NCBI GenBank assembly: GCA_050246315.1
Contig: JBFWWG010000002.1
Coordinates: 364,811 to 428,810, forward strand
Length of the DNA stretch: 64,000 bases
Direction: 5' to 3'
Origin: Nitrospiraceae bacterium
GTDB taxonomy: Bacteria > Nitrospirota > Nitrospiria > Nitrospirales > Nitrospiraceae
The notes beneath the pieces were generated by a model. The model was given only the letters and a program-made list of their open reading frames with translations. It did not search any database and was not told where the DNA came from. How positions within the stretch are numbered: the first letter of the stretch is position 1; each line of letters starts with the position of its first letter. The position numbers and the translations under genes were made by a program. Shown in pieces: positions 27,201-43,809 of this stretch.

Positions 27201-27631
27201 AAATACAACTTGGCATGTAGAGGATGCCGGAGGAACAGTTTGACTATAACCTTCTTGGATTTAATCTGTTCTGCCAGCTTGCGTAATCCCGCTTCGTCTT
27301 CGTTGGTAGGAATGCCAACGCTCAATTGCTCGCGGAACTCTTCGGCGAGCTTCTTCTTGAGGCGAATTGCCGTCTGATTGTCTATCTCGCCATCTCGGCT
27401 TATCAGGCTCAGAGCTTCCCGTAATTCGTCTTGCGGCAACCGCTGCATGCCGACCAATAAGCGGCAGCAGTGCCCGTCTCCTCCGGACCACTTCTCAATA
27501 TACGAGTCGAGCTGCTTCCATCCCCGAAGGTTGAAATACCCAACACAGAAGTCGGCACGGTCAGCAACTTGGATTGTTTCGCGCAGCGCTGGCAGGAGAG
27601 ATTGTTCGATGTTGTCAAAGATACGAGGCAT
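24245..27631 (-). CDS. PLD-nuclease / SNF2-like helicase fusion (restriction-type subunit)
   Basis: HAKLY...GSSNLT PLD motif; DVVGLGKT, IDESHN, LSATP, SEGQNLQ and QRAGRVDRIG helicase motifs. Confidence 0.9.
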   Translation of the reverse strand: MPRIFDNIEQSLLPALRETIQVADRADFCVGYFNLRGWKQLDSYIEKWSGGDGHCCRLLVGMQRLPQDELREALSLISRDGEIDNQTAIRLKKKLAEEFREQLSVGIPTNEDEAGLRKLAEQIKSKKVIVKLFLRHPLHAKLYLLFRPDPINPSVGYLGSSNLTLAGLSKQGELNVDVLDHDACQKLAKWFEDRWTDRWCVDISEELVRFIEESWAREELVPPYHIYIKMAYHLSQEARAGLSEFRIPRDFGKRLFEFQTAAVKIAAHHLNKRGGVLIGDVVGLGKTLMATALARIFEDDHGLETLIICPKNLVPMWEDYRAQYRLLAKVLSISQVVGELPNLRRYRLVLIDESHNLRNREGKRYRAIQEYIQANESKCILLSATPYNKTYLDLSNQLRLFVKEDKDLGVRPERLIRELTETEFIRRHQCSVRSLAAFEKSEYADDWRELMRLYMVRRTRSFIQDNYAQTDPTSGRRFLTFEDGSRSYFPIRVPRTVTFKIDDANPADQYARLYADDIVNTINALNLPRYGLGNYVAATPHEPPTQAEARLLQDLSRAGKRLMGFCRTNLFKRLESSGQAFLQSIERHILRNHVYLDAIEHKKPIPIGTQDAEMLDARIYDEDADAPGAKTGLFEDDENDQEQERPLTGSLRKAKDFISRGAEIYEEYAGQYKRRFKWLPSGLFVKSLENDLRSDTEALLKVLQLCGEWDSNKDAKLQALVNLLKKKHPNDKVLIFTQFADTVRYLETQLAARGVSSLAGATGDSPNPTALAWRFSPDSNDKRDRLKPGEELRVLIATDVLSEGQNLQDAAIVVNFDLPWAIIRLVQRAGRVDRIGQKAENILCYSFLPAEGVERIIRLRARVRRRLQENAEVVGTDEAFFEDDRNDNAILNLYHEKAGILDGEADTEVDLASYAYQIWKNAITADPSLQKTIPDLPPVIYATRAHDPTNKQPGGVLVYLRTAEGNDALAWIDKNGTAVTESQFAILQAAACSSDTPALPRQSNHHELVQKGVELIVTEEKTVGGQLGRPSGARFRTYERLKRHAEHVKGTLFESLELLKAIDEIYRYPLRQAAVDTLNRQLRSGVSDEALAELVIALREEDRLCLIHEEEQTQEPRIICSMGLSAPE

Positions 27632-28661
27632 CAGAAGTACTCATAACCGGTGCAAATCTGTCTCACAGTTTCAAATGTACCTACATACAAGGCCTGCCAG
27701 GCAGTTGAGCAGGTTGGGACAACTCCTTATCAGAAATAAGCTATGTGTGTGGACACATGGGAGCAGGCGGCTGTGCCGGCTAGCTCGCAAGAAACGTCCA
27801 TATATCGAGGCGAGAGTTTAGCGAATTACGCTGAAAAAGCCAATGAGAGCGGCCGGATAAGCTCTGCTTTTCGGGAAACAGTCTTGTGTTCGAGCCGCCA
27901 AGAATTTCGACAGCTCATCTTGGAGTACGCAGTGAGCACCCTTGCTTCATGGGCCCTTATCGACGAGCTTCTTCGGTTGGACCGCTTGCTGCAAGAACGC
28001 CGCTAACTCGCTGGGCACATCCCATCTATCCATCAAGGACATGATTATCCTCCTTGCTCCAGGAACTCAGTGAGCCTAGAATTTTGTTAGCATGTCCCCG
28101 GCTGATCTATACATCGCACTCTGGCTGCTTTCGCATTCTGCGGCAAGCGTGCCCTACAGTGGGTTCATCTGCTCTAACAGTTCCACCCCTCCCCTCTGCA
28201 CTCACCAGGTCTCTTCCGCAAGCCTTCCCTTGTTCAGCTCTTTGTACGACGGCGACTACCCTCTTCCTCCCACGCAGGGTTTTCCCGATTGGTTCTTCTC
28301 CTACCGAGACCGGACGGCACATCACGCTACCCCTCCCACGAGTTGCAGTGAATCATCCGAGCACGCCTTGGATGGCGGGACACCGTCCATCTTCACCTTC
28401 TACCCAGATCGGTCTCCGAGCCAGACCGGCTCAGACCTCGAAACCTGCCACGACAAGGTCTTCTAGCTACCTCCGTCTCGAACCACGGCCTGACCTCACG
28501 TTTCCCCCTCGGTAATTCACGAGTTCTGGGCTCACCCTGACGCACGACAATGTCCCCTCCCCGAGACCCTCTCCGAAATGGGGGAGGGAAAGGTTGGGGG
28601 GAGCGGGCCCGCGGCGGGCAGGGATCCGCTGAAATCGGTCTGTTCGAGGAGGTGAATCGCT

Positions 28662-29099
28662 ATGCAGGAGATCATCTGTGACCTGTGGGAATTGTACGAT
28701 CAAGGCTTCTTCATAGGGGTGCCTACGAACGGCGACTGTCGCCGGGATGGCCGTGCGGTCATGGGTGCGGGAGTGGCCTTGGCAGCTGCCAACCGATTCC
28801 CGAACCTGCCGATTCTCCTCGGAGCGAAGCTCCGTGCTTCTGGAAACCATGCCTACTACTGGCATGAGTGCCGGCTCGTGACATTGCCGACGAAGGAAAC
28901 ATGGACGCAACCCTCGAATCTCGGCCTCATTGAGCGGACCGCCCGAGAAGCCGTCCACCTCGCCGATCATAACCGACTCACCACGATCTACTGCCCCCGA
29001 CTGGGCTGTGGACTCGGCGGCCTCGCGTGGAAAGACGTCGCCTCCGTCCTGGCCAGCTTGTGGGATGGCCGCTTCATCATTGTCCACCCGGCTGCATAA
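28662..29099 (+). CDS. Macrodomain (ADP-ribose binding or hydrolase) protein
   Basis: VPTN..VMGAGVA, LPTKETW and PRLGCGLGGLAW motifs; GAGGAGGT RBS. Confidence 0.85.
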   Translation: MQEIICDLWELYDQGFFIGVPTNGDCRRDGRAVMGAGVALAAANRFPNLPILLGAKLRASGNHAYYWHECRLVTLPTKETWTQPSNLGLIERTAREAVHLADHNRLTTIYCPRLGCGLGGLAWKDVASVLASLWDGRFIIVHPAA

Positions 29100-29230
29100 C
29101 GCTATCCCCAGCATCCCCGAAAACTCACCACATCGCGATCCAACGGTCAGTAGTACCCAGAATGAGCACCGACAATGCGCAAGGGGGGCACCGTGCACGT
29201 CCGTCAGATGAGGAGGACGAAGAGACGGCC

Positions 29231-29512
29231 ATGAATCCGCTGAAAGTCATCGAGCAACGCTGTCCCGATCGCCCGCTATGGGACCCTATTCTTAAGGTCA
29301 TGCCCGAGAAGAGCGTCGCGCAATTCATGTTCATGGGAGAGGTGCTATGCGAGAGTGGAACCCGCATCTTTCTGTACAAGCACATCTGGAGCCGGCGCTA
29401 TATCAATCTGGATCAGCAAGGACAGGCCTACCAGTTCCACGCTTCTGAGCAGGGCTCCCACTACGTCCCCGTCGAGCTTTCTGGCGCCATCCGTCGCGCC
29501 TCAACCTTTTAG
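29231..29512 (+). CDS. Small hypothetical protein
   Basis: GAGGAGG upstream; globular composition (FMFMG..LYKH..RRYINLD). Confidence 0.6.
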   Translation: MNPLKVIEQRCPDRPLWDPILKVMPEKSVAQFMFMGEVLCESGTRIFLYKHIWSRRYINLDQQGQAYQFHASEQGSHYVPVELSGAIRRASTF

Positions 29513-29589
29513 ATCAGCCGCAAGCGAGCGCGATGCAGATGATGTGACTTCATTCCTCACGTAGACCACCCGACAAGCCACAGTCTCCC

Positions 29590-29910
29590 TTGACGCGTGA
29601 ACGCCGCACGCAGGATACTTCACCCGTGAGTCCCATCCTTCCGGATCAGACGGACCTCGAATCGCAGCTCGGAATCCTCCTCCGCACCGGCCGCGCGGCG
29701 GGATTCTCGAGCGAACGCTTCGACCAGTGTCTCCGGCTGATCGCCCAGATTCCGTCCCCCGATTCCCAGAAGGCGTGGTTCGATCTGTTCTACGAACAGT
29801 GGACGGAGTTTTCCCGGACGCCGGACTGCTTGCAGGGCCCGTTGAAAGAGTCCTTCGAGTCACGGCTGGCTCGCCTTCGTGCCCAGATCGAGCAGCAGCG
29901 CCGAGATTAA
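29590..29910 (+). CDS. Hypothetical helical protein
   Basis: 106-aa ORF co-oriented within the + strand cluster; weak start signal. Confidence 0.45.
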   Translation: MTRERRTQDTSPVSPILPDQTDLESQLGILLRTGRAAGFSSERFDQCLRLIAQIPSPDSQKAWFDLFYEQWTEFSRTPDCLQGPLKESFESRLARLRAQIEQQRRD

Positions 29911-29942
29911 CCTTTCCTTCTTCCCCACCAGCAGGAGTCATC

Positions 29943-30425
29943 ATGAACAACGCCCGCTCTTGGATCGCCGTTGTCAGTCTCTTTGATTGGGCCCGCATCC
30001 ACGAGTTCTGCCGCGAGCACGATATCGCCAAGGGCAACAGCCCCTGGCACATGTTCGATGCGCCGACGGGCGGGGCGATCAACTGCTGGACGATCGACGA
30101 GTCGCACTGGCAACGGATGGGCGAACTGTGCGGAACCTTCTACCCCGAACGATCCGACGGCCAGCATCCAGGTATCATCATCGAGGACATCATGGCCGGC
30201 AAGGTCGCACCGGAAGCCCTGCTCCAGGGCGGCTTCATGGCGGGGACTGAGGCTGTGATTGTCCGGTTCTCCCCCGCGAATCCCAATGACACGATCGAGG
30301 CCGAAGTGTGTGCTGCCTGGTCGGTCGAGCAAGCCCGTGAGTTATTCAACAAGTTGCACCTGCGTGTGTTGCAACGGCCCTTGCCCGCGCCCTCTCCTCC
30401 AGCGCCTCAGCCACTCCAACAATAG
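29943..30425 (+). CDS. Hypothetical protein
   Basis: AGGAG RBS before ATG 29943 (MNNARSW), in the frame of ORF 29727. Confidence 0.6.
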   Translation: MNNARSWIAVVSLFDWARIHEFCREHDIAKGNSPWHMFDAPTGGAINCWTIDESHWQRMGELCGTFYPERSDGQHPGIIIEDIMAGKVAPEALLQGGFMAGTEAVIVRFSPANPNDTIEAEVCAAWSVEQARELFNKLHLRVLQRPLPAPSPPAPQPLQQ

Positions 30426-30536
30426 CCCTCCTTTGTGAACGAGACAATTCTCGGATGGCCCGCAAGCGGGCAGTGCTCCAGCCTGCCTGACATGTCTGTG
30501 CGTCCATGATCTTTATCTTTGTTGAAGGAGGTTGCC

Positions 30537-30908
30537 ATGGCTGAGCAGGACATCAAGATTCTGACGCTTTCCGGTCGCATCACGCATAAGCCCGAATTGT
30601 TCCAGCACCAGGAAGGATCCTCCCTTGAGTTTTCGATCGCGGTGCACTCCAACGGGTTTTATGCCAAGGCCGACGATCCGGAGTACTGGGACATCAAGGT
30701 CCTCGGTGCATCGGAGAAGCTAGCCAACACGCTGGAGAAAGGGCAGCACGTGAAACTGACCGGGAATCCCCAGATCCGGACCTACATAAAGGAGGGAGTC
30801 CGGCATAAGGCGGTCACCGTGATCGTCATCGATCCGCGATTGCTGATCCTCGGACCCAAAGCGAAGCAACCGAAACCGCCTGAACTTGTCAATTCGGCTG
30901 CGGCTTGA
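30537..30908 (+). CDS. ssb: SSB-like OB-fold protein 1 (no acidic tail)
   Basis: LSGRITHKPEL, FSIAV, LEKGQHVKLTG and QIRTY motifs; AAGGAGG RBS. Confidence 0.7.
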   Translation: MAEQDIKILTLSGRITHKPELFQHQEGSSLEFSIAVHSNGFYAKADDPEYWDIKVLGASEKLANTLEKGQHVKLTGNPQIRTYIKEGVRHKAVTVIVIDPRLLILGPKAKQPKPPELVNSAAA

Positions 30909-30981
30909 CGCATCAAGCGACGCTCATTTGCCTGACCTCATTGTGTATCGGTCATCTATTATGTTGGAGGAGGATCATCCC

Positions 30982-32352
30982 ATGGAATGTGCGACATGCC
31001 TAACAGACTTGTACCCACCTGAGCTCATTGTTCAGCCGGAGTTCGATCCGGAAGACACCCTTCCCCCTCTCTACGACCGCTATGTGCTGCTCTCGAACGA
31101 CAACGAAGAGGTCGTGGTCACCTTCCTCGTCGCGCTGCATGCCGCCCATCTGGAGCAATGGGCTCGCCGAGACCAGGAACGCCGATTGTCGGGGGAGACA
31201 CGCTTCGCGGACGAGGATCCCAGACCGGAGTTCCCGCTGATCATCAAACGATCACAGAGGGCTGGCGCGCCCCGATTCGCTGTGCTCCCCAACGGCCGGC
31301 GAGTTCTTCTCCTCGATGCGCATCGGGTCTACTTCCTCTGCGGCATCGCGGGCGTCCTCTCCCTCGAAGAGGCGAAAGCCCGGAACCACACGAGACTCGG
31401 CTACAGGCTGTGCCCGGGCTGTCAGGGGAAACATCTGCCTCCATCCGCCGCGACAATCTCCAAGGCTAAAGCAGTCGCAGTCAACGAGTGCCCTGCAGAG
31501 ACCTGCCCCAAGTGCCACGCGCCCAAGGCCTCCTCCTATATTCCAGACGGGCCCGACCACAGCCGGTGCCTTCTCTGCGGCCAGTATGACTACCATGCGG
31601 CGCCAGACCAGCTCACCAGCGATGAAATGGACCAGAACGAGGATGCGATTGCCAGCATGCTCTTCGCCCAGGGAGACCTCGAAGCCGCATTCCCCTCACT
31701 CGGAGACGACCTCAGCGAAGAGCCTTTCGATGTGGATCCCGATAGCTTTCCAACAGACTCTGAAGGCAGTGAAGAGTGCCGCAAAGGGTTCGATCTCCAT
31801 GAAGAAGAGCTTGCCGACCTCCTCGCGAACACGTCGCAAGACCTCGCCGATCTCGGCGACCGCATGCACAAGCCCGCGTTCGACCTCTTCCTGACCCGCC
31901 ATCCCCTCCGGAAGAAGCTGATCGACCTGGCTCTCCGTGGCGCCGACCATACCGAGTCACGTATGGCCCTCTGGGCAGCGGCCGGCCGGATCCTTGAGGT
32001 GTCTCCGCGTTCTCTGAGCGAGGAAGACTCCGAGGCCATCTCCGAGTGGCTCCTCACGTTATCAGATGAGGACCTCTCCATCCTTGCCGGCGATCCGGAC
32101 GCACACCATCCGATGCTGCAGCACCCGAGCCCTGGTGCCTTTCAATCTACGGATCCCCTGCTGCTCCCGCTCGTCAAGTATTTCAAAGAGCAGCTCCGGC
32201 GTTTCCGCTCGAAGGAAGCCGGCTGCCGCCTTCTTTCGAAGGACCATGGATTGAGCGAAGAAGCGCTGCGTTCCGTCGCCATGCAATGTGGCATGCTGCC
32301 TGGGACCACTTCTGCCCCCATTCGTTGCTCTCCTCAGGCCCACGCTGCCTGA
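30982..32352 (+). CDS. Zn-ribbon plus acidic-linker hypothetical protein (paralog A)
   Basis: GGAGGAGG RBS; CPGC, CPKC and CLLC motifs followed by a D/E-rich tract. Confidence 0.7.
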   Translation: MECATCLTDLYPPELIVQPEFDPEDTLPPLYDRYVLLSNDNEEVVVTFLVALHAAHLEQWARRDQERRLSGETRFADEDPRPEFPLIIKRSQRAGAPRFAVLPNGRRVLLLDAHRVYFLCGIAGVLSLEEAKARNHTRLGYRLCPGCQGKHLPPSAATISKAKAVAVNECPAETCPKCHAPKASSYIPDGPDHSRCLLCGQYDYHAAPDQLTSDEMDQNEDAIASMLFAQGDLEAAFPSLGDDLSEEPFDVDPDSFPTDSEGSEECRKGFDLHEEELADLLANTSQDLADLGDRMHKPAFDLFLTRHPLRKKLIDLALRGADHTESRMALWAAAGRILEVSPRSLSEEDSEAISEWLLTLSDEDLSILAGDPDAHHPMLQHPSPGAFQSTDPLLLPLVKYFKEQLRRFRSKEAGCRLLSKDHGLSEEALRSVAMQCGMLPGTTSAPIRCSPQAHAA

Positions 32353-32527
32353 ACTCACCAAGCGGCACAGAGGTTCCCTGCGACGTTGGTTTCCAGGACC
32401 CTGTGCGGCATGCGCATCGATAGTTCGGTGCCATAAGGGTAATCAGGTCAGCCAGGTAACCGGCGTGGCGCATTGAGCGTCATGTCTTGTTGTTCACTCA
32501 CCACTCACATGTTGGAGGTATGTTCAC

Positions 32528-32875
32528 ATGCGTACGTTCGCCAAAGGCACCATCAACGGCCGTCTCACCACCGACCCCGTCATCCGCACGGTCGGCGACA
32601 AGTCGGTCTGCAACCTGCGCCTCGCGGTCGACGGGCTCCCGTCCAGGAAGACCGGCGAGAAGCGGCCCTCGAGTTATTTCTCAGTCGTCGTCTGGGGAAA
32701 GCTCGCCGAGAGCTGCCGCAACCTGGTCAAGGGCCAGGAAGTCTACGTGGAAGGCAACCTTCAAACCCGGACGCGAGAGACCGACGGTCAGGCGTCGGTG
32801 ACGTATGTCGAGCTCAACGCCAGGACCGTCAACTTCGGCAACCTGCCGAGGTCGGCGATGCAACGGGCCGCGTAA
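32528..32875 (+). CDS. ssb: Single-stranded DNA-binding protein 2 (no acidic tail)
   Basis: INGRLTTDP, LRLAV, VVVWGKLAE and LVKGQEVYVEGNLQTR motifs. Confidence 0.88.
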   Translation: MRTFAKGTINGRLTTDPVIRTVGDKSVCNLRLAVDGLPSRKTGEKRPSSYFSVVVWGKLAESCRNLVKGQEVYVEGNLQTRTRETDGQASVTYVELNARTVNFGNLPRSAMQRAA

Positions 32876-32881
32876 GCGGAC

Positions 32882-32935
32882 AAAAAAAGGGAGTGCGATC
32901 CCCCGATCGTCACGATCGAGCTGGACGCACTCCCT
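32882..32935 (-). terminator. Intrinsic terminator between convergent genes
   Basis: Stem GGGAGTGCG/CGCACTCCC with an inner CGATCG hairpin, followed by T7 on the minus strand. Confidence 0.7.
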
Positions 32936-33004
32936 CACCTGTAGGGAGACCGGAAGGAACTCCGCACCGCCCTGAGTGCAGAATTCCTTCCGTCTCGTTG
33001 CCTG

Positions 33005-34423
33005 TCACCTGCCGCAAGCTCTCTGGAACACGGCCTGGGACACTCCAAACTTCGGACCCAGAATCCGGATTCCAGCCTGCGGATAGATGAAGCGCGCGAG
33101 TTTGACCCGGCACGAATACTTCCACCGCTCGATCTTCACCGAAATCGGCGGCAGGACCCGCTGCATGCCATCGGTCGTGATCTCGGTCAAGAGGTCGGCT
33201 TCCGGCAAGAGCTTCCAGAGGACATCCTCCGGCGCCGCGACCAGCCAATGCGCGACCTCACGCTGCTCCCTCTCTTTCATCCTGACACAGGATTCAGCCG
33301 TGGCCGATGCGGCTGCCCACACCAGATCCATTCGGCTCCCCGACAAGTGGCCGAGTATCGTGGCTTCAAGAAGCCCACAACGCAAGGCCTTGACCGAGAG
33401 GCTTTGCCAGAACCGGTTCTGGAGCGCGATGAGCATGTCATCGGCATCCTCCTGCTCAGATACGTCCTGATCTGCTGATGCTGCTTCGTCGGAGGATTCC
33501 TCGGTTGGTTCCTCACCGCACCTCTCATCGGTTGAGAGGGATGTGGCATCCGTCCTCTCGGGGTCTCGATCCTGTTCCCGATCCGTCTCCGGCACCTCGC
33601 CGAAGAGCAAATCCTCCGCTTCCACTGATCCCAACGCCGCCACCTCCGCAAATTCCTGGGCGACGTCGCTCAACATTGGATCAGGTTCCTGGTCGTCATC
33701 TCGCACCGCCGCCCGTGATAACGCCAGCTCGTTCTGAGCCTGGTCTTCCGCTGGCAGCAGTGTCGTTGTTTCCCTCCACCCGCACAGGCAACTCCGCTCC
33801 AGGATTCCGGATTCGGAGGTCCCAGAGACCACCCGTTCCAGCACCACTGAAGCCTTGCACCGGGGGCATGTCGGTTGTGTGGATACCGATGCGCGAGGTA
33901 AGGGCACCTGATTCTCCGCTTGTAGCCTCGACAGGTGATATCCGAAGCACATCGGACACTGCCGAGGGCCAGTGATCCACGTTCCGCCACGTCGTTCCTC
34001 CTCCGACAACACCACCGGCACTTGAAGACCGCACAGCGGCATTGCCCGGGACAAGTCCAATCGACGACCTCGCCGTCCGTCACGTAGCGTGACATACACG
34101 CTGCGGTATCGACGGCGGAGGACCGGAACCCTGGGTGTGGTCGGTTGATGTTCTTCGTCATAGCGATTCTCCAATGGAGTGCGAGCCGTCTGCATCAGCC
34201 GGTTCGACCAGTCCACTTCCTCCATCTCCGCCAACCGCTGTTCCAGGTTGTAGAGATTGACGGGGTGGATTCTGTGGTTCCCAGTCCGGCACTCCTCGAG
34301 CAACGCCTGCACATCCTCTTTCTCCAGACGTGCGACACGGGTCGCATGGGCTCGTGGAGCCAGAAGGGCCTTGCGAAGTATGGTCCGAATCGCTGTGAGC
34401 TTCGATGTGGTTGTTGTGGTCAT
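33005..34423 (-). CDS. Zn-ribbon plus acidic-linker hypothetical protein (paralog B)
   Basis: GAAGGAG RBS; CPMC, CPRC and CLC motifs and a D/E-rich tract; motifs align with 30982-32352. Confidence 0.7.
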   Translation of the reverse strand: MTTTTTSKLTAIRTILRKALLAPRAHATRVARLEKEDVQALLEECRTGNHRIHPVNLYNLEQRLAEMEEVDWSNRLMQTARTPLENRYDEEHQPTTPRVPVLRRRYRSVYVTLRDGRRGRRLDLSRAMPLCGLQVPVVLSEEERRGGTWITGPRQCPMCFGYHLSRLQAENQVPLPRASVSTQPTCPRCKASVVLERVVSGTSESGILERSCLCGWRETTTLLPAEDQAQNELALSRAAVRDDDQEPDPMLSDVAQEFAEVAALGSVEAEDLLFGEVPETDREQDRDPERTDATSLSTDERCGEEPTEESSDEAASADQDVSEQEDADDMLIALQNRFWQSLSVKALRCGLLEATILGHLSGSRMDLVWAAASATAESCVRMKEREQREVAHWLVAAPEDVLWKLLPEADLLTEITTDGMQRVLPPISVKIERWKYSCRVKLARFIYPQAGIRILGPKFGVSQAVFQRACGR

Positions 34424-34463
34424 GATGGTGTCTCCTTCGATTGTGGGTGCGACGGTGAATCGG

Positions 34464-34847
34464 TCAACGTTGGCAAACCGGTTCCGCATTGAGGGCCTGC
34501 GAGGCAGTCACGACCGCTTCATGAGCTTCCTGCGACAACCTTGGCAGATCCCTTGGGCTGTAACGGGCAAACGTCATCAAGGCCTCGCGCTCGAAGCGCC
34601 CAAGCCTTGCCGCCCGCGCGACAACTCTCCGTGCGAAGTCGAACTCCCAAGTTTCCGGAATGGTCGCCTGCCCCCTTGTTTGCCTTTGAATCTGGTCCGC
34701 TATGGCACTGACCTTTACAAACTCCCCATCGACTTCGCAGAGTACGTCCCCCGCTGCCGTGTGAACCCGATCCGGTTCGAACAGGGTCGCGAGGATGAAT
34801 TCGCGATGGGACCTGAAGTAGTCGTTCCATTTGTGATGGCTCTCCAT
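34464..34847 (-). CDS. Hypothetical protein
   Basis: AGGAGG RBS before MESHHKW. Confidence 0.55.
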   Translation of the reverse strand: MESHHKWNDYFRSHREFILATLFEPDRVHTAAGDVLCEVDGEFVKVSAIADQIQRQTRGQATIPETWEFDFARRVVARAARLGRFEREALMTFARYSPRDLPRLSQEAHEAVVTASQALNAEPVCQR

Positions 34848-34910
34848 GATGGCCTCCTGATGAGTGACAAGGATTGACAATCCGCCTGCGCTGCAGTACA
34901 TCGTGAATGG

Positions 34911-35246
34911 ATGCGAGCCTACCGAGTCGAAATCCCGCTCAGCGGGCCTCTCCACGATGAAGCTGAGGTTCTGCTGCTGGAGTCACAGAGCGGTGACACC
35001 GGACGCGACGACCTCAAGCGACGCATGCGCGACTGGTTCGATCGAGTCCTGCGCTATTGGAATTTCCAGCCGACGCCGGTCCTGTGTCCCAGATGCCAGA
35101 CTCGACTGGACACGCTGTATCCGAAAGGTTCGCGAGAAGATTGTGATTTGTGGGTACTTGAGATGAACGGGAAGGGACCGGCGATCATCTACACCTGTCT
35201 CTCATGTCGAGAGCGGGTGCCGATGCCGATTGGCGTCCTGACCTGA
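34911..35246 (+). CDS. Small putative Zn-finger protein
   Basis: CPRC and CLSC pairs; lies antisense between two minus-strand genes. Confidence 0.4.
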   Translation: MRAYRVEIPLSGPLHDEAEVLLLESQSGDTGRDDLKRRMRDWFDRVLRYWNFQPTPVLCPRCQTRLDTLYPKGSREDCDLWVLEMNGKGPAIIYTCLSCRERVPMPIGVLT

Positions 35247-35441
35247 GACGACCTGCCGCAACTTTCCCAACAGGCCATCTCCCAGAATTACCTCGTCATC
35301 GAGCGTACTAAGGTACAACCGCACTTTTTCCGGTTCGCTCTGCGCACGTTCCACCAAGTGTCGATAGGTTCGTCGCGCATGCCGGATGTCCCCTAGAAGC
35401 ATTTCCCACGCCTGTTTTTCGTTCTTGCTCATGCCTGCCAT
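35202..35441 (-). CDS. Small hypothetical protein
   Basis: GGAGGT RBS before MAGMSKNEK. Confidence 0.55.
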   Translation of the reverse strand: MAGMSKNEKQAWEMLLGDIRHARRTYRHLVERAQSEPEKVRLYLSTLDDEVILGDGLLGKLRQVVSGQDANRHRHPLST

Positions 35442-36302
35442 AGGCGTACCTCCACAACAAGGATGTGCTGAACTCAGCACGGGGCCGGAGCCCAGGTTGA
35501 GTCATGCGATGTCTGTGATCGCTATGAGGTGACTTGATCTGATGCAGGAGAGAACAGATGGAAGGATGGTTTTGAGGAGTTGGACGGTTGTGAGCGGTGC
35601 TGTCCTGCCGATAATCTGATTATGGTACTGTCATGATGTCCTCCTTTCCTGTGGGCTGAAGCCGCTGCCGGTGCGATGCGAATAAGCAAGCCGCATCCAT
35701 GTGGAGACACACGAGGGGCGTCTCACTCACATGAGCCAGCGGTCAGATGAATGTTGGGAATGATGTTGAACTGTGTGAAGTGTGAAACTGTTCCTGCGCA
35801 GGGCGCGCAATCGCTGCTGAAGGGATCGTGCGCTGTCCACGATGATCAGTCGTGAAACGACAGCATCACGATGATGAGAAGAATTGAGAAAGGTTCTGCC
35901 GCGTGAAGTACTCCGGCAGACAGATGATTCGGCGAGTGCCTACTAAAAGAAGTAAAGTGGCTTTATCCTACGGTTCTGCGCGACGAGTTGCAAGAGTTTG
36001 GCGCGTGCATCGAGCAATTTTTTTGCGCGGGCAACATGCATAACTGAGACCAACCCCACGTGACCGGAACTGAACGTTCTTAACTCCAATCACACCTCAC
36101 CCAGCCGGTGCGAACACTCCGCGCACTGGTCCCGGCTGGTTTCAGATCGTTCGCGGACCAACATAGAGACTTCACGCGACAACGCCACGCGGCTTCACGT
36201 TGTTCTCTGTCTTTGCCCGTCCGCCCTCCGGCGCTCGTCCCGAGCGCAGGTTCAATCACCCGATGCTCTGTGCGCTTATCTTCGGCACTCAAGGGAGATG
36301 TC

Positions 36303-38768
36303 ATGCAGACTCCGGCAGGATGGACCACTCCAGAAGTGCACCACGTGGACCACCGCACCCTTGTCCGCATGATTGAATCCTTTCGCCAGGCCATCGCAGA
36401 CGAGCTGCGCGCTCGACAACCCCAAAGCAGTACGGACAGCTTCACCTTCCCGATCCGCAACGGCCGCCTCCAACACCGTGCCGGGCGGACCTCCTACTTT
36501 CTCTTCGACTGCCAGCCGATCCCTGACCACATTCTGGAGGATACCCATCCTTCTCTCCTACTGAACGACCAGCGTCTTCCTTGCCGAGTCGTTGGACTCT
36601 CGATCGACGGCCTGGCACTGGCGCTGGATACTGAACTGCAGTCGGAAATACCCCAAGCGCATCTCACCTTTGACTCCATCAAGCTCTTGCAGGCCCTGGA
36701 CAAACGTCTGGTCCAGATCCTGCGCCAGCCGGCCGACTTCAACACAGCACTCAGCCTCAAGGCCTTCCAGCCCGATGCCGTCCCCAGACTCGTGAATTCC
36801 GTGGGCATTGCCGCACCCTCGTCCTTAAACAAAGAACAGGCAGCGGCCTTCGCATGCGCGCTACGGGACGATCTCCTGTTCGTCCTCGGTCCTCCGGGAA
36901 CCGGGAAAAGTGAATTGATCAGTGCCCTTGCTCACGCGTTCCTTCAGCTCGGCCAGCGGGTGTTGATCTGCTCTCCGACGAACACCGCCATCGATCACAT
37001 CCTCGACCTTGTGCTCGATAAGTTGCCGGATTGTCCCACCGGGACGATCGTTCGCGTAGGAGCTCCAAGCCCCGACATCTCCAAGCGAAGCCAAACAACC
37101 AGTCTTGAGGCCCTGGTACTGGACTACACGACCGCTATCGAAGCAACCGTTGAGCCTCTACGGAAGCAACTCAGCGCCCTGGAAGCCGACCTGCCCGGGC
37201 TTGAAAGCCTGCTCCAGGATGCTCGGCAGGTCAGCATCTGCCAGCGCACCGTCGCCGAGCTGCAGCAACGGCATGATCTGCTCGTCGCCCACGAGGAGCA
37301 GCTCCTCAGCGCGATCGCAAGGGTTCGAAGCGAGTTGGAAGAGGCCCACCACCGCCTGGCGTCCCTGCGGGCCCTGCCCTTTGTGTTCAGGCTACTGCAG
37401 CAACGGCAGATCGCGCAGACGGAACAATTCATTCTGGAAGAAACTCCTGAGCAAGCCAGGCGGTATGCGGCCCTCCGGATGCTCGAACAAGATCTGCGCC
37501 AATCACGGCGACTCATCCAGGACGCTCAGGAAGGGGAGCGAGCAGCCAGAGAGCATCTCCCCTTTTCCGTGGACCACTTCACCCTTGATGAACTCGAACT
37601 GCTGGTCTGCGTCACGCAGCACAAGACCCGCGAGCTCCGGCAGACCGTCACAGATGGAGGGCGGCGCATTGCGGAGATCGAACGTACGATCATCAACCGA
37701 AGCCGGATCATTGCGACAACCTTGACCCGGACCTATGCCTCCAAATTGCTCAGTCCCGAACGGTTCGACGTCGTGATCCTGGATGAGGCGAGTATGGGCT
37801 TGCCGCCCGCCGTCTTTGCCGCCTCGTGTCTCGCGACCAAGAAGCTGATCATCGTCGGCGACTATCTCCAATTGCCCCCAATCACAGTAGCCAAGACCGA
37901 GCACACCAAAGCGTGGCTCGCAAGGGATATTTATCAGATCGCGCAGATCACGTCCGGACAGGATCAGCGGGTCGTGTCGCTCGCCACCCAGTACCGGATG
38001 CATCCGGATATCGCACGGGTTGCCGCGCGCCTGTATGCCCGCGCCGGCCTCGCCTATCAGTCGGCCGCCCACATGGGGGCAGCCCGTCGGCCCTTAACGG
38101 CCTATGCGCCCGCTCCCGGTCAGCCCTTGATCGTCTTGGACACGGCCGGCGCCGATCCCCTGACCAAACGGGACCGCAGAGGGTCGCCCTATAACCTCTA
38201 CCACGCCATGCTCGCTGTGCGGCTTGCCATGCAAACCGTATCGACCCCGGGCGAGGCGCCCTCCGTCAGCATCATCGCGCCCTATCGCGCCCAGGTCGAT
38301 CTGATCGAGCGATTGCTTCGCCTTCAAGGGCTGGCAGACTTGGTCCAGGCCGGAACGGTCCACCGCTTCCAAGGGCGCCAGAGCGATGTCGTCATCTTCG
38401 ACACGGTCACGACGGCCAACATCGCACGGACCATGCTCGGGTGGGGACACGAAGATGCAGCGCCGCACAAGCTCATCAACGTCGCGATCACGCGCGCGAA
38501 AGGAAAGCTCATCCTCATCGGCCACGCCGGGGCGCTCGAAGAACTCCAACGGAGTCCCGAACCGCTGCTCTGGGACTTTCTTCAACTGGCCCGGGAATAC
38601 GGCATCATCGTGGCGGCGACGTCGCTGCTCGCGGCGGTCCCGGATATCCACCTGGATTCCACTCAGCAAACCGACCAGTTGCTGACTGAAGCGTTCGGGC
38701 GGTCGCAAACGGGCAGCCAGAATCTCCGCCTGGTCGAGGCCGCGTCTCGGGCCCTTCAAGTCTCCTAG
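36303..38768 (+). CDS. Superfamily 1 UPF1/DNA2-like helicase with a coiled-coil insertion
   Basis: GPPGTGKS, SPTNTAID, ILDEAS, VGDYLQLPP, QYRMHP, GTVHRFQG and NVAITRAK motifs. Confidence 0.9.
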   Translation: MQTPAGWTTPEVHHVDHRTLVRMIESFRQAIADELRARQPQSSTDSFTFPIRNGRLQHRAGRTSYFLFDCQPIPDHILEDTHPSLLLNDQRLPCRVVGLSIDGLALALDTELQSEIPQAHLTFDSIKLLQALDKRLVQILRQPADFNTALSLKAFQPDAVPRLVNSVGIAAPSSLNKEQAAAFACALRDDLLFVLGPPGTGKSELISALAHAFLQLGQRVLICSPTNTAIDHILDLVLDKLPDCPTGTIVRVGAPSPDISKRSQTTSLEALVLDYTTAIEATVEPLRKQLSALEADLPGLESLLQDARQVSICQRTVAELQQRHDLLVAHEEQLLSAIARVRSELEEAHHRLASLRALPFVFRLLQQRQIAQTEQFILEETPEQARRYAALRMLEQDLRQSRRLIQDAQEGERAAREHLPFSVDHFTLDELELLVCVTQHKTRELRQTVTDGGRRIAEIERTIINRSRIIATTLTRTYASKLLSPERFDVVILDEASMGLPPAVFAASCLATKKLIIVGDYLQLPPITVAKTEHTKAWLARDIYQIAQITSGQDQRVVSLATQYRMHPDIARVAARLYARAGLAYQSAAHMGAARRPLTAYAPAPGQPLIVLDTAGADPLTKRDRRGSPYNLYHAMLAVRLAMQTVSTPGEAPSVSIIAPYRAQVDLIERLLRLQGLADLVQAGTVHRFQGRQSDVVIFDTVTTANIARTMLGWGHEDAAPHKLINVAITRAKGKLILIGHAGALEELQRSPEPLLWDFLQLAREYGIIVAATSLLAAVPDIHLDSTQQTDQLLTEAFGRSQTGSQNLRLVEAASRALQVS

Positions 38769-38882
38769 CTTCCACCAGACGGTCGCGAAGCCGAGTGCCG
38801 CTCAGGGCCGCAGGGCGGCCAGGCCGGTCTGCTGATCACCTGTACAGGCAGAAGCAAGTATCCAGAGAAGGAGGCGATCAGC

Positions 38883-39452
38883 ATGGTCCTCTCCATCATG
38901 GTCTCCGGCCACAGACCCGGCAAGTTAGGCGGCTACACCGTCAATCCCATCGGCAGCCGCATCCGTCGAGAGCTCCATGACATCATGGCCAAGACGCGGC
39001 GTCGATTTGGCTGCTGCGTAGGCATCACGGGTATGGCCCAAGGTGTCGACCAGTGGTTCGCGGAAGTCTGCCGCGACCTCTCTATCCCCTACATCGCGTA
39101 CATACCTTTCCCCGGACAGGAACGGTTGTGGCCTCCGGATGCTCAACATCACTACCGCCAGTTGGTAGCCGATGCTTTCGAAGTCCGCGTCGGTCCGTCC
39201 GCGAGCACAAAGCCCGACATTATCGCCGCGCTTCAGCGGAGGAATTCCGAGATGGTGAGCGGATGTCATGCGGCAATCGCGGTATGGGATGGATCTTCCG
39301 GTGGAACCGCCGATGCTGTGAGAAAACTCACGGACCTAGGCCGGCCACTCCTTCGGCTGGACCCGCGCCAGCCTTTCGATCCTGCAACCGTTGATCACTG
39401 GCTCGATACATTGTCGGAATTCGCTTCATCTGCCAGGAGGCATCTTCCATGA
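38883..39452 (+). CDS. YspA/DUF1273-like SLOG-family protein
   Basis: SGHRPGKLGGY, TGMAQGVDQW, RRNSEMV and VWDGSSGGTA motifs. Confidence 0.85.
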   Translation: MVLSIMVSGHRPGKLGGYTVNPIGSRIRRELHDIMAKTRRRFGCCVGITGMAQGVDQWFAEVCRDLSIPYIAYIPFPGQERLWPPDAQHHYRQLVADAFEVRVGPSASTKPDIIAALQRRNSEMVSGCHAAIAVWDGSSGGTADAVRKLTDLGRPLLRLDPRQPFDPATVDHWLDTLSEFASSARRHLP

Positions 39453-39925
39453 CTCTTGATCATCCGCCTCTTACCCACGACGAACGGAAAGCCGCCGAAG
39501 CTGCCTTCCAAGACCGCCCATTCAATCCCATGTGGTCGCAGAAGGCCCAACGCATCTATGACGGCATCCGTGCGGCGCAAGCCAATCGCCCTACCAAGAG
39601 CCAGGCTGCGGATGTTGTGCCTCCAGTTCGAACCACCATCGCCAGTCCGTCGTCTGATTTGCATTACTCCGATTCGGCTCCCTTCATTCCTCGGATTGCA
39701 CAAGTTTGGATGCTCGAATATCAGGACACGAAGGAGCGCCGCCTGGAAGTGTGTCCAGGTGCCACGTCGATCGAGCAGCTCTTGAAGGTCTTTCGGCGGA
39801 GAGCTCACGGCCGCTCGTTCACGATCCAGATGGTTGATGTTGCCAGCATGTCACTCCCCCAGGCCAGCATTTCCTCCTGCAGTCACGATGCGCGCCGCAT
39901 CGACCAGGACGGATTCCTGGCATGA
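39449..39925 (+). CDS. Hypothetical protein
   Basis: ATGA overlap with the SLOG gene stop codon. Confidence 0.55.
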   Translation: MTLDHPPLTHDERKAAEAAFQDRPFNPMWSQKAQRIYDGIRAAQANRPTKSQAADVVPPVRTTIASPSSDLHYSDSAPFIPRIAQVWMLEYQDTKERRLEVCPGATSIEQLLKVFRRRAHGRSFTIQMVDVASMSLPQASISSCSHDARRIDQDGFLA

Positions 39926-40043
39926 GCACGACCGATGCACACCATGTTCATGCTTCTGTAGCAGGTGGACCTTGATGTGGCCCGCTGCGCGGGCATTGTC
40001 TCAGGCTCGGCGTATCTGGTAGACGAACAGCCAGGAGGACACC

Positions 40044-40808
40044 ATGACGCTCCAGGAATTGGCAGATGCCATGACCAGCGGACTCCAAGAGCAAGGGATC
40101 ATCGCTATGTCGGGCCCGTCGATGAACAACCAGTACGCTGCCAAACTGCTTGTCCAGATGCAGAACGGACCCAGTCTCGGTGCTCTTAAGCTTTATGTCG
40201 GCAAACGCGGCCCCACCCTGGTCCCTGATGAATTGCACTCCTGTCCACCGGACGTACGATCACGCATCTTGGAAGTCTGGGAGCGCATCTCAGGCCGGCT
40301 CTCTACTTCTCCGGGTGGTCGCGACTCCTTCGCAATCGATCCCTCGGTCGTTCAGGTCTGGGTGGATGGAGCCTGTCTGCAGGCGCCGCTCGGATTCCGG
40401 TTCGGCTGGGCGTTTGTCATCCAGCAAGGTGATCGGGAATTGCACCGGGACTCCGGCAGCCTTCTGCGGAGCGGCGCATTCGAACATCGCAATGTCGGAG
40501 CGGAACTCGAGGCCGCGACCCGCGCGCTCACCTGGTGTCTTCTCAACGGATACAAGCAGGTCACCGTGTACCACGATTACAAGGGCATCGCCGCCTGGCC
40601 AACCGGCGCTTGGCGGGCCAATACCCCGTCGACCTGCGAGTACGCCCGGTTCGTCAAAGCCCTACGGCTTGAGGTCACCTGGCAGAAGGTTCCCGCGCAC
40701 CAGGGGATTGCGATGAATGAACTGGTTGATCAACTCGCCAACCGCGCAGCAGCCGAGAGTCCTGCTCTTCCTATTCCCGCAAGCTCGACTCCTGATCCCG
40801 TCATGTGA
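40044..40808 (+). CDS. Ribonuclease HI-family protein with an N-terminal extension
   Basis: VWVDGA, RNVGAELEA, VYHDYKGIAAW and KVPAHQG..NELVDQLA motifs. Confidence 0.88.
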   Translation: MTLQELADAMTSGLQEQGIIAMSGPSMNNQYAAKLLVQMQNGPSLGALKLYVGKRGPTLVPDELHSCPPDVRSRILEVWERISGRLSTSPGGRDSFAIDPSVVQVWVDGACLQAPLGFRFGWAFVIQQGDRELHRDSGSLLRSGAFEHRNVGAELEAATRALTWCLLNGYKQVTVYHDYKGIAAWPTGAWRANTPSTCEYARFVKALRLEVTWQKVPAHQGIAMNELVDQLANRAAAESPALPIPASSTPDPVM

Positions 40809-41039
40809 AACTCACCCTTCCGCGCACCTCTTTTTTTCCACCGTCCAACCTTCTGAGCGGTCATCAGGCCCGCTGCGCGGGCAGCATGTCCGAAGTTGTG
40901 ACAGGGGCCTGAGACCATCTCACGAATCAGACCACGTTGCATGTCGACTTCGGTGAACGGCCGAGGCTCGGGCCTGTCGTTCCCTATTGCTCTGCCATCC
41001 CCGCAGGGTCTTTGTTCACCCATGAAAAGGAGTGTTGCG

Positions 41040-41429
41040 ATGAGCACTGCGACCGCTGATTCCGGAACGGACCGGAAACTATTCAAAGATACGAACAAGC
41101 TTGAGATGACCGGGCGGCTTGCGAGGAACCCGGAGATCCGCTACCGAGCCAATAGCCAGGCTGTGACCACATTCGACCTCTGCAGCACTGAGGAGTATCC
41201 GGTGCAAGGGGAAGTGCGAAAGCGGGAATGCTGGGTCACGGTCGTCATGTACGGCCCCGACGGCGAGAAGTTCGCCGGTGAAGGCCAAAAAGGCGATTGG
41301 ATCGGCATCATCGGCAAGCTCCAACAGCGTCGCTGGGAAACCGAGGATGGCCAGAAGCGCGCGAAGCATGAGATCGTCGCGTTCTCCGCCGAGGTCAAGC
41401 GCAAGGCTCGCACGAGCACCCCGAGCTGA
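41040..41429 (+). CDS. ssb: Single-stranded DNA-binding protein 3 (no acidic tail)
   Basis: NKLEMTGRLARNPEIRY, KGDWIGIIGKLQQRRWE and DGQKR motifs. Confidence 0.85.
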   Translation: MSTATADSGTDRKLFKDTNKLEMTGRLARNPEIRYRANSQAVTTFDLCSTEEYPVQGEVRKRECWVTVVMYGPDGEKFAGEGQKGDWIGIIGKLQQRRWETEDGQKRAKHEIVAFSAEVKRKARTSTPS

Positions 41430-41806
41430 TCCACTACAACCGGGCGGCTTCCTACCGTGGATCTGACCACCGCTTTTTCGAGAGCCATTATGACGCTCTC
41501 CACCCTGGGCCATGGGGACTAACATGGCCACCCCCTTGGCACCCAATCCTTCAGAGGCGCGCAATGGACATCTTCGATTCTGCATTTGTCGGAATCCTGC
41601 AATTCATGGTTGCCTCCGTCACCCTGGGTACCGTCCTTGGCTCGATCGCGATCTACGTCTTCCAGACCCAGGAGAGACGGGTGGCTCGTCGTACGCTCTT
41701 CATCCACATTCCGCCGCACTATCCACTCGGCCGCTTCCGGTAACAACCAGCTCAGACTCGCTGCGCTCGTAGGTCACACCTCCCGGGTAATACATGGAGG
41801 TGCACC

Positions 41807-42136
41807 ATGACTGTACTGACCCGCGGACAAATCAAGCCGGGCGTGATCGGCATCGATACGACCGTGAAGTCTGCCATCGGACTGTGGCGATCCTTCGCCC
41901 CGACGTGGTCTATGGTAATGGGCTGGAAGCGCGGAGAACTCACCTGGGAGCAGTACGTCTCGCAGTACGGTGCGATCCTCGCTCGTGTTCCGGATGTTGT
42001 CTGGAACACCCTGGCCGCGCAACCTGAAGCCCGGTTGCTCTGTTATTGTCGTGACGGCGTACCCTGTCACACGCACCTCATTATCGCGTATGCGGTCGGC
42101 ATCTGGCCGGACCGCTTTCGCGACGGACGCACGTGA
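41807..42136 (+). CDS. Small DUF488-like protein
   Basis: FAPTW, TWEQY and LLCYC...CH motifs; GGAGGT RBS. Confidence 0.6.
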   Translation: MTVLTRGQIKPGVIGIDTTVKSAIGLWRSFAPTWSMVMGWKRGELTWEQYVSQYGAILARVPDVVWNTLAAQPEARLLCYCRDGVPCHTHLIIAYAVGIWPDRFRDGRT

Positions 42137-42254
42137 ATCGTTTCTCGTGTTCCGCCTCCCCTTGAGGTAGATGTTCCCGCCTCCGAGTTGGAGGCCGCCG
42201 CAGACGGCGGCAGGAACTCACCGTGATGACTCTCGTCCAACCCAGGAGGAAAAG

Positions 42255-42431
42255 ATGCGGTTCCAGATGCAGATCTCAAACCACATTCTGAGCAAGCTGA
42301 ATGGGAAGGCTCATCAAGAGGTCGACTCGTTCGCTCGACGGCATTTCCGGATCAAAGAAGTGCGCGCGAGAAAGGAAGCACAAGACCGAGTCCACACCTT
42401 CAACGCCATCCGTGCGGCACTGAGTCGCTAA
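42255..42431 (+). CDS. Small basic hypothetical protein (58 aa)
   Basis: Strong AGGAGG RBS before MRFQMQ. Confidence 0.5.
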   Translation: MRFQMQISNHILSKLNGKAHQEVDSFARRHFRIKEVRARKEAQDRVHTFNAIRAALSR

Positions 42432-42704
42432 CGTTTCCCAGTGGAGTGGACAGGCCTACTGCACCACGCCTCTAAGACAACCGGCTTCCCCCCGGGGCTG
42501 CTGCAGATCGAGCGGAGCAGGCCGCTCTGTCCCAGTGTCGCGGCTTCGCGCCCACGACGCGGGCGCTCGCCGCTCCGTACCAGGGCTGCATTGCGCACCT
42601 GGCACCTGAGGGACAGGCCGGCGCTTCGCGCCGGCAGGCTACAGAACTCTGTGGTGCTCCATTCGAATTGCCGGATCTGGCTCCCCGAACCCTTGTGTCC
42701 TCCC

Positions 42705-43229: not shown

Positions 43230-43809
43230 CTCGATTTACTTTCCCTCCGTCGCTTCGTGAGTTCGGACAATATATTCATATATGTTATGTACGAACGTCC
43301 TGAGCACAATCCCGTCAGCAACCTCGTCCAGGAAACGCGAACATCTCGGTACCCCGTACAGCCTCATGATGAGGAGGTTCACTCTGAAGGGAACCATCGC
43401 AGTATCCCTCACTTTCGTGGCAATTCGGATGTAGAGGTATTACTGCTTCGAGACCGGCCCTCCAAAACCCCTTGATCTCGTGGAGCCCAGAACTTCTTCA
43501 GCCAGTCGGACTCAACAGGCTGATCCGGGTATTGAGGCAACCTCGATAGGGAAGGCCCACATATATATATGGATAGAGCGACCTTCCTCAGACATTCAGT
43601 GTTACATTGTCTTTATTATCTAACCTATTGACGATATTTATATTTCATACTTTCTACGTTGTTCGCGCTTTGCTTTTCCCCCTTTCGCTCGGTGACTTTG
43701 ATGGTCTCCTGGAATCTTGGGGAGACTCTCTGGCGTCTGGTCAGTAATACGACAGGCGAGAGGCCAGATTATCCGTTACTCCGAACCAGTCGAACGAAAG
43801 GAGCGCTAT

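Follow-up and report, generated by a model that had tools for sequence, protein, structure and literature searches.

Short strand-restricted hairpins ahead of the genes of a Nitrospirales conjugative element, candidate start signals on single-stranded DNA

How conjugative elements outside the enterobacterial F and I families achieve the switch-on of their protective genes within minutes of entry is little known; of the devices that serve this end, only the large Frpo-type fold-back, which relies on the sigma-70 enzyme of the host, has been worked out. The question is raised by a 64,000-nucleotide (nt) stretch of the genome of a Nitrospiraceae bacterium (GenBank assembly GCA_050246315.1, contig JBFWWG010000002.1, here C2; C2:364811-428810), hereafter called the window and used for all coordinates without a contig prefix, which covers part of a large F-type conjugative element. 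A preliminary description made from the letters of this DNA alone had drawn attention to eight short GC-rich hairpins in the gaps between genes of the element, all in one orientation, and had read them as priming or promoter signals on single-stranded DNA. What do these hairpins do? We find that they are a real signal, confined to one strand of a single 14-kb block and kept in related elements, and we tentatively favor the view that they act as strand-specific initiation signals while the element is single-stranded.

The hairpin family and its conservation

The eight hairpins, with the short names used below in brackets, are as follows.

28606..28621, + strand: hairpin 1 (28607), G, GCCCG-CGG-CGGGC, AG; ends 42 nt before the ATG of the DarG-like macro gene
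30457..30473, + strand: hairpin 2 (30458), G, GCCCG-CAAG-CGGGC, AG; ends 65 nt before ssb1
36230..36249, + strand: hairpin 3 (36231), G, GCGCTCG-TCC-CGAGCGC, AG; ends 55 nt before the SF1 helicase gene
38805..38822, + strand: hairpin 4 (38806), G, GGCCGC-AGG-GCGGCC, AG; ends 62 nt before the YpsA/SLOG gene
39979..39996, + strand: hairpin 5 (39980), G, GCCCGC-TGC-GCGGGC, AT; ends 49 nt before the RNase H gene
40867..40884, + strand: hairpin 6 (40868), G, GCCCGC-TGC-GCGGGC, AG; ends 157 nt before ssb3
42193..42213, + strand: hairpin 7 (42194), G, GCCGCCG-CAGA-CGGCGGC, AG; ends 43 nt before a 58-aa open reading frame (ORF; 42255-42431)
42616..42637, + strand: hairpin 8 (42617), an orphan, G, GCCGGCGC-TTC-GCGCCGGC, AG; the longest stem of the eight

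The sequence bears out the original account of these sites: all eight lie on the + strand between called genes and form elements of 13-19 nt, with perfect Watson-Crick stems of 5-8 bp that are almost pure G-C, loops of 3-4 nt, a G on the 5' side and AG on the 3' side (AT at 39980). Pairing is kept while the stem sequence changes from site to site, and the distances listed agree with the first estimate that seven hairpins lie about 40-160 nt before + strand genes, whose starts all consist of a Shine-Dalgarno sequence and an ATG (SD+ATG). Hairpin 1 heads the first + strand unit and hairpin 3 the second + strand block; hairpin 8 has no + strand gene downstream and closes the block, facing a convergent gene (42705-43229, - strand). 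An alignment of the eight sites with 40-nt flanks, made with MAFFT, revealed no conserved flanking sequence, and column counts taken relative to the stem gave no more than (C)(A)G ahead of it and A-G(-G) behind it. Over the 60 nt upstream of the hairpins, C is frequent (0.357) and G scarce (0.228).

A strict form of the motif, namely a G, a perfect stem of at least 5 bp that starts with G and is at least 85% GC, a loop of 3-4 nt and then an A, occurs 115 times on the two strands of the 4.385-Mb genome (8.77 Mb of strands). By simple arithmetic this rate predicts about 0.18 sites per 14 kb, and the sole cluster in the genome with at least four strict motifs per 15 kb is formed by these eight. 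The pattern search on both strands against shuffled controls that had been suggested at the outset found eight strict motifs on the + strand and none on the - strand of the region 28000-43000, as against 0.11 on average and never more than 2 in 300 dinucleotide-preserving shuffles of the same region; as the motif was derived from the same eight sites, these cluster figures overstate the significance, and it is the relatives that provide an independent check.

Such relatives were recovered with the protein sequence of the superfamily 1 (SF1) helicase, which detects this block in two of 60 related genomes, in 18 records from Nitrospirales in the genome collection and in about 30 metagenome contigs, at helicase identities from 92% down to 34%. 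The hairpin ahead of the helicase gene is kept in every one of the 41 loci with upstream sequence (17/17 from genomes and 24/24 from metagenomes), and the 17 Nitrospirales genome loci (L018-L034) together carry 62 strict motifs on the helicase strand as against 5 on the opposite one, with essentially none in loci of other phyla. Among 32 distinct pre-helicase hairpins 99.5% of 222 cells are paired, the exceptions to Watson-Crick pairing being one G-U cell and one mismatch. Four of the seven pairs never vary, and two show compensatory changes, from G-C to A-U in one lineage (six sequences) and from U-A to C-G in one sequence. The flanking G and A are invariant in these 32 sequences and the A is followed by a G in 29; variation is free in the three loop columns and farther out in the flanks. 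The same flanks emerge when they are left out of the search. When all GC hairpins lying 30-100 nt before an SD+ATG start in the relatives were gathered in non-redundant form with no rule on the flanks, those on the + strand (n = 104) had the flanks G..AG in 40 cases, G..AA in six and G..AT in four, with any other pair found at most four times, as compared to G..AG in only 1/83 on the minus strand.

The conservation extends beyond the helicase gene. In the most distant loci the genes of the helicase, RNase H and the protein that binds single-stranded DNA (SSB) remain headed by a hairpin, the RNase H gene for example also in L023, L024, L031, L033 and L034, and the same kinds of genes as in the block are found in the distant loci L028 and L031. 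Hairpin 1 is conserved in the genomes G001 and G031 and in L020, and hairpin 8 is kept at the end of the block in relatives, where it has GAA as its loop in G031 and a stem of 12 bp in L023; across genes and relatives the arms range from 5 to 12 bp. Separately, the helicase gene itself contains a hairpin (GCCGCC-CACAT-GGCGGC followed by AG, 38065-38081) that is perfect in several relatives and mismatched in the window, and this coding-sequence hairpin is probably unrelated to the intergenic family.

Comparison of close relatives further shows that the hairpin travels with its downstream gene. Homology resumes 1-3 nt from the 5' edge of hairpins 28607, 39980 and 40868, and about 100 nt before hairpin 28607 (28497-28605) are unrelated among four elements that are otherwise 85-95% identical, while hairpin 1, the sequence downstream of it and the block further upstream are all conserved. 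Variants among contigs assembled from RNA libraries (19 runs hold parts of the stretch, of which four were examined; such contigs give no starts, ends or strand, and low cover of a part proves nothing) break at 28604, 30448 and 40884, and in one of them the 103 nt after 40884 (hairpin 6) are replaced. The unit of hairpin 4 is absent from G001, which has a hairpin-less coiled-coil gene instead; as this replaced unit has a hairpin at one side only, we do not take the hairpins for recombination sites of cassettes.

Breakpoints at the 5' edges of hairpins could nevertheless point to a role in duplex or cruciform DNA, in which the sites would be palindromic operators, hairpins of the phage N4 type extruded from supercoiled DNA, or hot spots of module exchange. 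Every site is indeed a perfect palindrome with a free center of 3-4 bp, and the stem sequence itself is conserved at a given gene, as the invariant pairs of the helicase hairpin illustrate. Furthermore, loops of relatives are sometimes exact reverse complements of each other (TTC/GAA, TCG/CGA, TGC/GCA), which marks an event at the DNA level, and the part of the N4 literature considered here describes SSB as holding such hairpins open (PMC4496689). However, the stems differ by gene (GCCCG, GCGCTCG, GGCCGC, GCCGCCG, GCCGGCGC) as do the lengths of their arms, and one duplex-binding regulator therefore cannot read them all. The asymmetric, strand-specific flanks (G..AG) are not needed by a symmetric operator, no -10-like element lies downstream, and the one-sided exchange in G001 leaves recombination of the cassette type unsupported. 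Taken together, we regard a duplex or cruciform role as improbable.

Comparison with known hairpin signals

The statement in the preliminary description that the hairpins are not intrinsic terminators is upheld: each stem is followed by only 1-4 T in the next 10 nt with no T-run, and a terminator scan that detects a canonical T-run terminator at 32889-32904 flagged none of the eight. A subtler version of this idea is that they are weak or factor-dependent terminators or pause sites, which insulate the genes and are relieved by the NusG and NusA paralogues of the element. Their intergenic position, their GC-richness, the greatest strength at the end of the operon and the C-rich sequence upstream would all fit, but the lack of a T-run in a region that does hold a canonical one, the position of two hairpins at the head of gene blocks and the attachment of the hairpin to the downstream gene are all at odds with it. 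In addition, the RNA-library contigs cross three of the hairpins, the column counts reveal no pause-consensus signal 10-12 nt downstream, and there are no hairpins in the transfer operon where the Nus genes sit, which makes termination or pausing the least probable of the roles considered and a very unlikely one.

The Nus paralogues had also led to the suggestion that the hairpins are boxB-like sites. The nut sites of phage lambda are similar in being 5-bp GC stem-loops in an operon leader of a mobile element; boxB, however, is recognized by its loop and comes together with boxA, whereas here the loops are free, the flanks are conserved only at G and A-G with no boxA-like sequence, and the transfer operon with the Nus paralogues has none. 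We accordingly abandon this suggestion, together with the motif TCTTTGTT that had been cited in its favor, which is associated with the ssb genes and not with the hairpins: it has 4 matches as against 1.2 expected, two of which precede ssb1 and ssb3, and a related TCTTGTTGTT precedes ssb2, so that one or the other sits 14-32 nt before the ATG of each of the three ssb genes. Repetitive extragenic palindromes (REPs) and other intercistronic stabilizers are likewise GC-rich palindromes between genes of operons, but REPs are about 35 nt long, imperfect, spread genome-wide and marked by a GTAG head, whereas the present motif is strand-specific and confined to one 14-kb block. A search of Rfam 15 families over both strands of 27000-46000 gave 0 matches at E up to 1. 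Integron attC sites are also rejected, as the eight sites lack an AAC/GTT core, the hairpin stays with the downstream gene and the swap in G001 is one-sided. In the open full-text literature, with subscription journals outside this scope, we encountered no description of such short GC hairpins in conjugative elements or in Nitrospira. A look-up by sequence with the leader of the helicase gene turned up no similar stretch.

The closest parallel in setting is provided by the Frpo/ssi sequences of F, ColIb-P9 and pESBL, which like the present hairpins are repeated, restricted to one strand and placed ahead of ssb and anti-defence genes of a conjugative element, and which, in the portions of two studies drawn on here, are proposed to yield both messenger and primer on the incoming strand (PMC12672017, PMC11541004). 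They differ in build. As those accounts present it, Frpo is a large fold-back (about 100-300 nt) that rebuilds -35 and -10 boxes and is screened for at less than -75 kcal/mol per 200 nt, whereas the present elements measure 13-19 nt and the best 200-nt window reaches -57.9. More precisely, minus-strand 200-nt windows across 27.5-45.5 kb have a mean of -32.1 and a minimum of -57.9, none being near -75 kcal/mol, and the eight whole intergenic regions fold no better than shuffled sequences (z from -1.9 to +0.8), which sets aside a large fold-back of Frpo/ssi class 1-3. Stems of 5-8 bp made only of G-C, with no -10-like element, likewise exclude rebuilding of a -35/-10 promoter within the stem. 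The hexamer TANNNT occurs in 8/47 leaders between hairpin and gene as against 18.8 +/- 3.0 in shuffles; this depletion of -10-like hexamers makes an ordinary duplex promoter between hairpin and gene unlikely. A sigma-70 scan of 27-44 kb found 3 sites as against 4.9 expected, none of them adjoining a hairpin.

In form, the hairpins are more reminiscent of the early promoters of phage N4, which are small hairpins with a 5-7 bp stem and a 3-nt loop. According to the sections of the N4 study that concern them, the virion RNA polymerase recognizes these on the template strand and needs SSB, transcription starts a few bases past the stem, and the non-conserved stem bases need only pair (PMC4496689). 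In the N4 hairpins, according to the same sections, certain bases of loop and stem (-11G, -10G, -8G) are conserved and four bases separate the stem from +1 (PMC4496689), whereas the loop columns here are unconstrained in the 32 sequences and A-G abuts the stem with no 4-nt ruler, and we therefore do not assign them to the N4 class. A third parallel is found in ssiA and ssiB of plasmid RSF1010, short hairpin signals for single-strand initiation that are served by an element-specific primase; the relevant part of a study of RepB' describes two 40-nt sites in oriV with a six-base recognition sequence 5' of the hairpin, priming beside the short hairpin with an A laid down opposite a T near the helix foot, and a start 5 nt 3' that copies into the hairpin (PMC8567376). 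As described there, that primase is of the Pri (AEP) type and makes DNA primers, whereas the primase of the present element is of the DnaG type and a search for the Prim-Pol domain PF09250 found none. Moreover, the present sites are eight in number, linked to genes, outside any known origin and conserved in their flanks only at G and A-G, with a single base conserved 5' of the stem, and hence an RSF1010-type ssi read by a RepB'-like enzyme is rejected.

The origin of phage G4 is a further parallel. There the strand is coated by SSB, hairpins remain exposed, and DnaG makes pppA-G primers from a 5'-CTG-3' start; that origin needs about 140 nt with three stem-loops, of which stem-loop I is copied by the primer. 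In the present case there is a single hairpin, and the CTG would lie on its 5' side on the minus strand, from which it follows that synthesis would run away from the hairpin.

Possible start signals on single-stranded DNA or stem-loops in RNA

We tentatively propose that the hairpins are read as start signals when the DNA of the element is in single-stranded form, be it directly after entry by conjugation or in the course of rolling-circle copying. In the complement of the gene strand every site reads 5'-(C/T)T, a GC-rich hairpin and C-3', and the short, perfect, all-GC stem could survive coating by the three SSBs of the element and thereby mark the site. DnaG starts at template 5'-CTG-3', and this rule applied to the (C/T)T of the sites predicts pppA-G products that extend into the downstream gene; synthesis would begin at the invariant T and the next C, and the RNA might serve as a primer for the complementary strand and possibly also as the 5' end of an early messenger. 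The most likely reader would be the DnaG-type primase of the element, or else the host DnaG.

Several features are consistent with this proposal. The motif is confined to one strand even where the neighboring genes run in the opposite direction. The conserved part is exactly the G, both arms and A(G), and the invariant purine pair at the foot of the helix looks like a point of initiation. The stems pair strictly and almost purely as G-C, with G-U and A-T nearly absent; on the small numbers available, this suits a helix of DNA better than the usual helix of RNA. The genes concerned also fit. In order, the first part of the block encodes the macro protein, three small ORFs, ssb1, a 456-aa Zn-ribbon protein and ssb2, and is separated by three minus-strand genes (33005-35480) from the second part, which encodes the SF1 helicase, a YpsA-SLOG protein, a 158-aa ORF, RNase H, ssb3, an 86-aa ORF, a DUF488-N3a protein and a 58-aa ORF. 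The principal features are listed below.

28662..42431, + strand: the hairpin-served gene block, from Pfam and NCBIfam matches
28662-29099, + strand: DarG-like macro gene, whose nearest family is the DarG antitoxin
30537-30908, + strand: ssb1
32528-32875, + strand: ssb2
36303-38768, + strand: SF1 helicase gene, IGHMBP2/Upf1-like
38883-39452, + strand: YpsA/SLOG gene
40044-40808, + strand: RNase H gene
41040-41429, + strand: ssb3
43810-44922: ParM-like actin gene, just beyond the block
C2:468400-469422, + strand: gene of a DnaG-type primase of 340 aa (Zn-ribbon_DnaG and Toprim), about 40 kb past the end of the window (L173:1401-2423)

SSB, RNase H and the Upf1/IGHMBP2-like helicase, the three kinds of gene that keep their hairpins in distant loci, suit such a role. 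The three SSB paralogues (115-129 aa) consist of the OB fold only and lack the acidic C-terminal tail, the tip of which in other SSBs recruits host proteins. The element-borne primase is consistent with the proposal as well: its gene adjoins that of a SNF2-like helicase, and its homologues (42-85% identity) share a contig with distant versions of the block in 5/5 genomes, one of which has a second copy interrupted by a stop codon. A precedent is offered by the reports, in the parts relied on here, that leading-region genes including those for SSBs use the transferred strand as template and are driven by single-strand promoters (PMC11541004, PMC12672017), besides the N4 and RepB' systems considered above.

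A number of observations weigh against this proposal. As to the strand that is transferred, searches with the relaxase families PF07514, PF08751, PF03432 and PF03389 of Pfam found none, and no oriT was found. A 445-aa HD-domain protein (50781-52118) was considered as a MOBH relaxase and rejected, its protein atlas neighbors being only 'HD domain' proteins, with no NCBIfam or PHROG match. The plasmid collection holds no relative of the helicase above 34% identity, and therefore no typed plasmid that could give the polarity of transfer, and the GC skew (-0.06 to -0.16 over the element as compared to about -0.05 in the chromosome to its right) is not decisive. The genes of the type IV secretion system (T4SS) lie on the strand opposite to the block; in F the transfer and leading genes are co-oriented, and if this holds here the + strand would be the one transferred. 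As to the enzyme, G031 has the block but no primase was found there, and G025 yielded the primase but is without a close helicase; we know of no primase that makes messengers by itself; and the CTG rule is general background on DnaG that may not be the specificity of the primases of Nitrospira or of the element. A search for a T7-like RNA polymerase (PF00940) had no match in the genome, a weak point given that no control genome had one either. Finally, in RNA libraries of four studies there are contigs that cover the block and run across hairpins 30458, 38806 and 39980; carry-over of DNA is possible, but if taken at face value the hairpins probably also lie inside ordinary transcripts. Thus, the initial reading of the sites as priming or promoter signals on single-stranded DNA is partly supported, by the restriction to one strand, the A(G) after the stem, the element primase and the hairpin-headed ssb, RNase H and helicase genes.

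The bridging contigs direct attention to the main alternative, that the hairpins act in RNA, as stem-loops of the 5'-leader or between the cistrons of polycistronic messengers. They might there keep exonucleases off the processed ends of mRNA, show where processing takes place (at the G or at A-G), or bind an element-encoded factor that reads the foot of the helix. The spacing lends itself to this: in 50 non-redundant sites the median distance from hairpin to start codon is 48 nt, with most at 34-67 nt, which, going by the size of the 30S footprint, is just outside the region covered by the 30S subunit, and this narrow range is explained just as well by a role in RNA as by one in single-stranded DNA. 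The hairpins also lie 32-59 nt past the preceding stop codon, the stems are very stable as RNA (-8.4 to -17.6 kcal/mol), the last and strongest closes the operon, and no extra polymerase is required. The base composition of the 60 nt upstream resembles that of Rho-loading regions, which are C-rich and G-poor.

Other properties fit a role in RNA less well. G-U pairs are almost absent from the stems (1/222 cells), which are nearly pure G-C, and are not favored among mismatches: the imperfect hairpin copies have one G.T, two A.C and three transversion mismatches, which are too few to decide the strand. The loops are unconstrained, though most RNA-binding proteins read loops, and no Rfam family is matched. 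Hairpins 28607 and 36231 start their blocks with nothing promoter-like just upstream, and would therefore not be 5'-terminal in a primary transcript. The minus-strand genes amid the block (33005-35480) have no hairpins on either strand, and the first + operon ends at ssb2 without one. We thus view a role in RNA as possible but doubtful, and still lean, with due reserve, toward initiation on single-stranded DNA.

An extended form of the proposed initiation signal, which we consider rather unlikely as a whole, is that the sites define a minimal class of single-stranded DNA start signals: a 13-19 nt all-GC hairpin with an A-G start at the helix foot, read on the incoming strand by the DnaG-type primase of the element or by an unrecognized polymerase. 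Assisted by the tail-less SSBs, the Upf1-like helicase and RNase H, this would amount to a host-independent kit, both for priming the complementary strand and for turning on establishment and anti-defence genes early. In any case, the Nitrospirales element family keeps a signal that is smaller than Frpo and differently built, in front of exactly those genes whose products handle single-stranded DNA and host defence. Should it prove to be an initiation signal, it would represent a second, possibly host-independent solution to early expression, a functional counterpart of Frpo and the N4 early promoters that works on a different principle, in the form of a compact and testable set of eight sites of 13-19 nt with a defined candidate reader. 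If it is a hairpin of the messenger, it would be tidy but ordinary operon punctuation. Either way, the motif offers a practical means of recognizing the establishment block of these elements in nitrite oxidizers of wastewater and soil.

The host element and its other genes

The element encodes a full set of F-type transfer proteins, TraE, TraK, TraB/TrbI, TraV, TraC, TrbC, TraU, TraF, TraH, TraG and TraN, all on the minus strand, as well as a coupling protein, a RecD2-like helicase and an integrase (C2:476511-477746). With three ssb genes and a DarG-like macro protein, the hairpin block resembles a leading or establishment region as judged from its predicted gene products, in line with the setting first suggested for it, and the consulted part of a study of such regions leads one to expect this kind of gene content (PMC11541004). 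The macro gene adjoins no DarT partner. DarG is a DNA ADP-ribosyl glycohydrolase, and the macro protein may be a counter-defence gene product directed against DarT-type systems.

The 456-aa protein between ssb1 and ssb2 (30982-32352) has three conserved pairs of cysteines (CPGC, CPKC, CLLC), and searches of Pfam, NCBIfam, PHROG and PDB sequences gave no match to it. The protein atlas yielded only a lead of 0.85. An AlphaFold model has a mean pLDDT of 60.5 with a confidently predicted helical C-terminal domain, and a Foldseek search of this model against the PDB gave no match at E up to 0.001. Relatives of the protein (36-40% identity) are restricted to Nitrospirota, and the orthologue in L031 lies just upstream of a hairpin-headed SSB gene. 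A 494-aa protein was equally without a match.

Two stretches that hold no credible gene, of 600 nt (28007-28606) and 750 nt (35481-36230), are pyrimidine-rich on the + strand; each precedes the first hairpin of a + block, and relatives keep them in part. Upstream of the ParM-like gene lies an AT-rich stretch (43476-43809) with an (AT)5 run and short repeats, which is a candidate for the centromere site. The first part of the window (1-28000) is a defence island with a CBASS-like set (SMODS, HORMA, AAA), a KAP NTPase, an Eco57I/MmeI-type methylase and a SNF2-PLD helicase, and also holds a LexA-like/ImuB/DnaE2 mutagenesis cassette. Lastly, at two of the ssb genes the TCTTTGTT or TCTTGTTGTT motif just follows a terminator-like hairpin (32462-32486, 40989-41009), and this combination could be an autoregulatory or attenuator site of the ssb genes.

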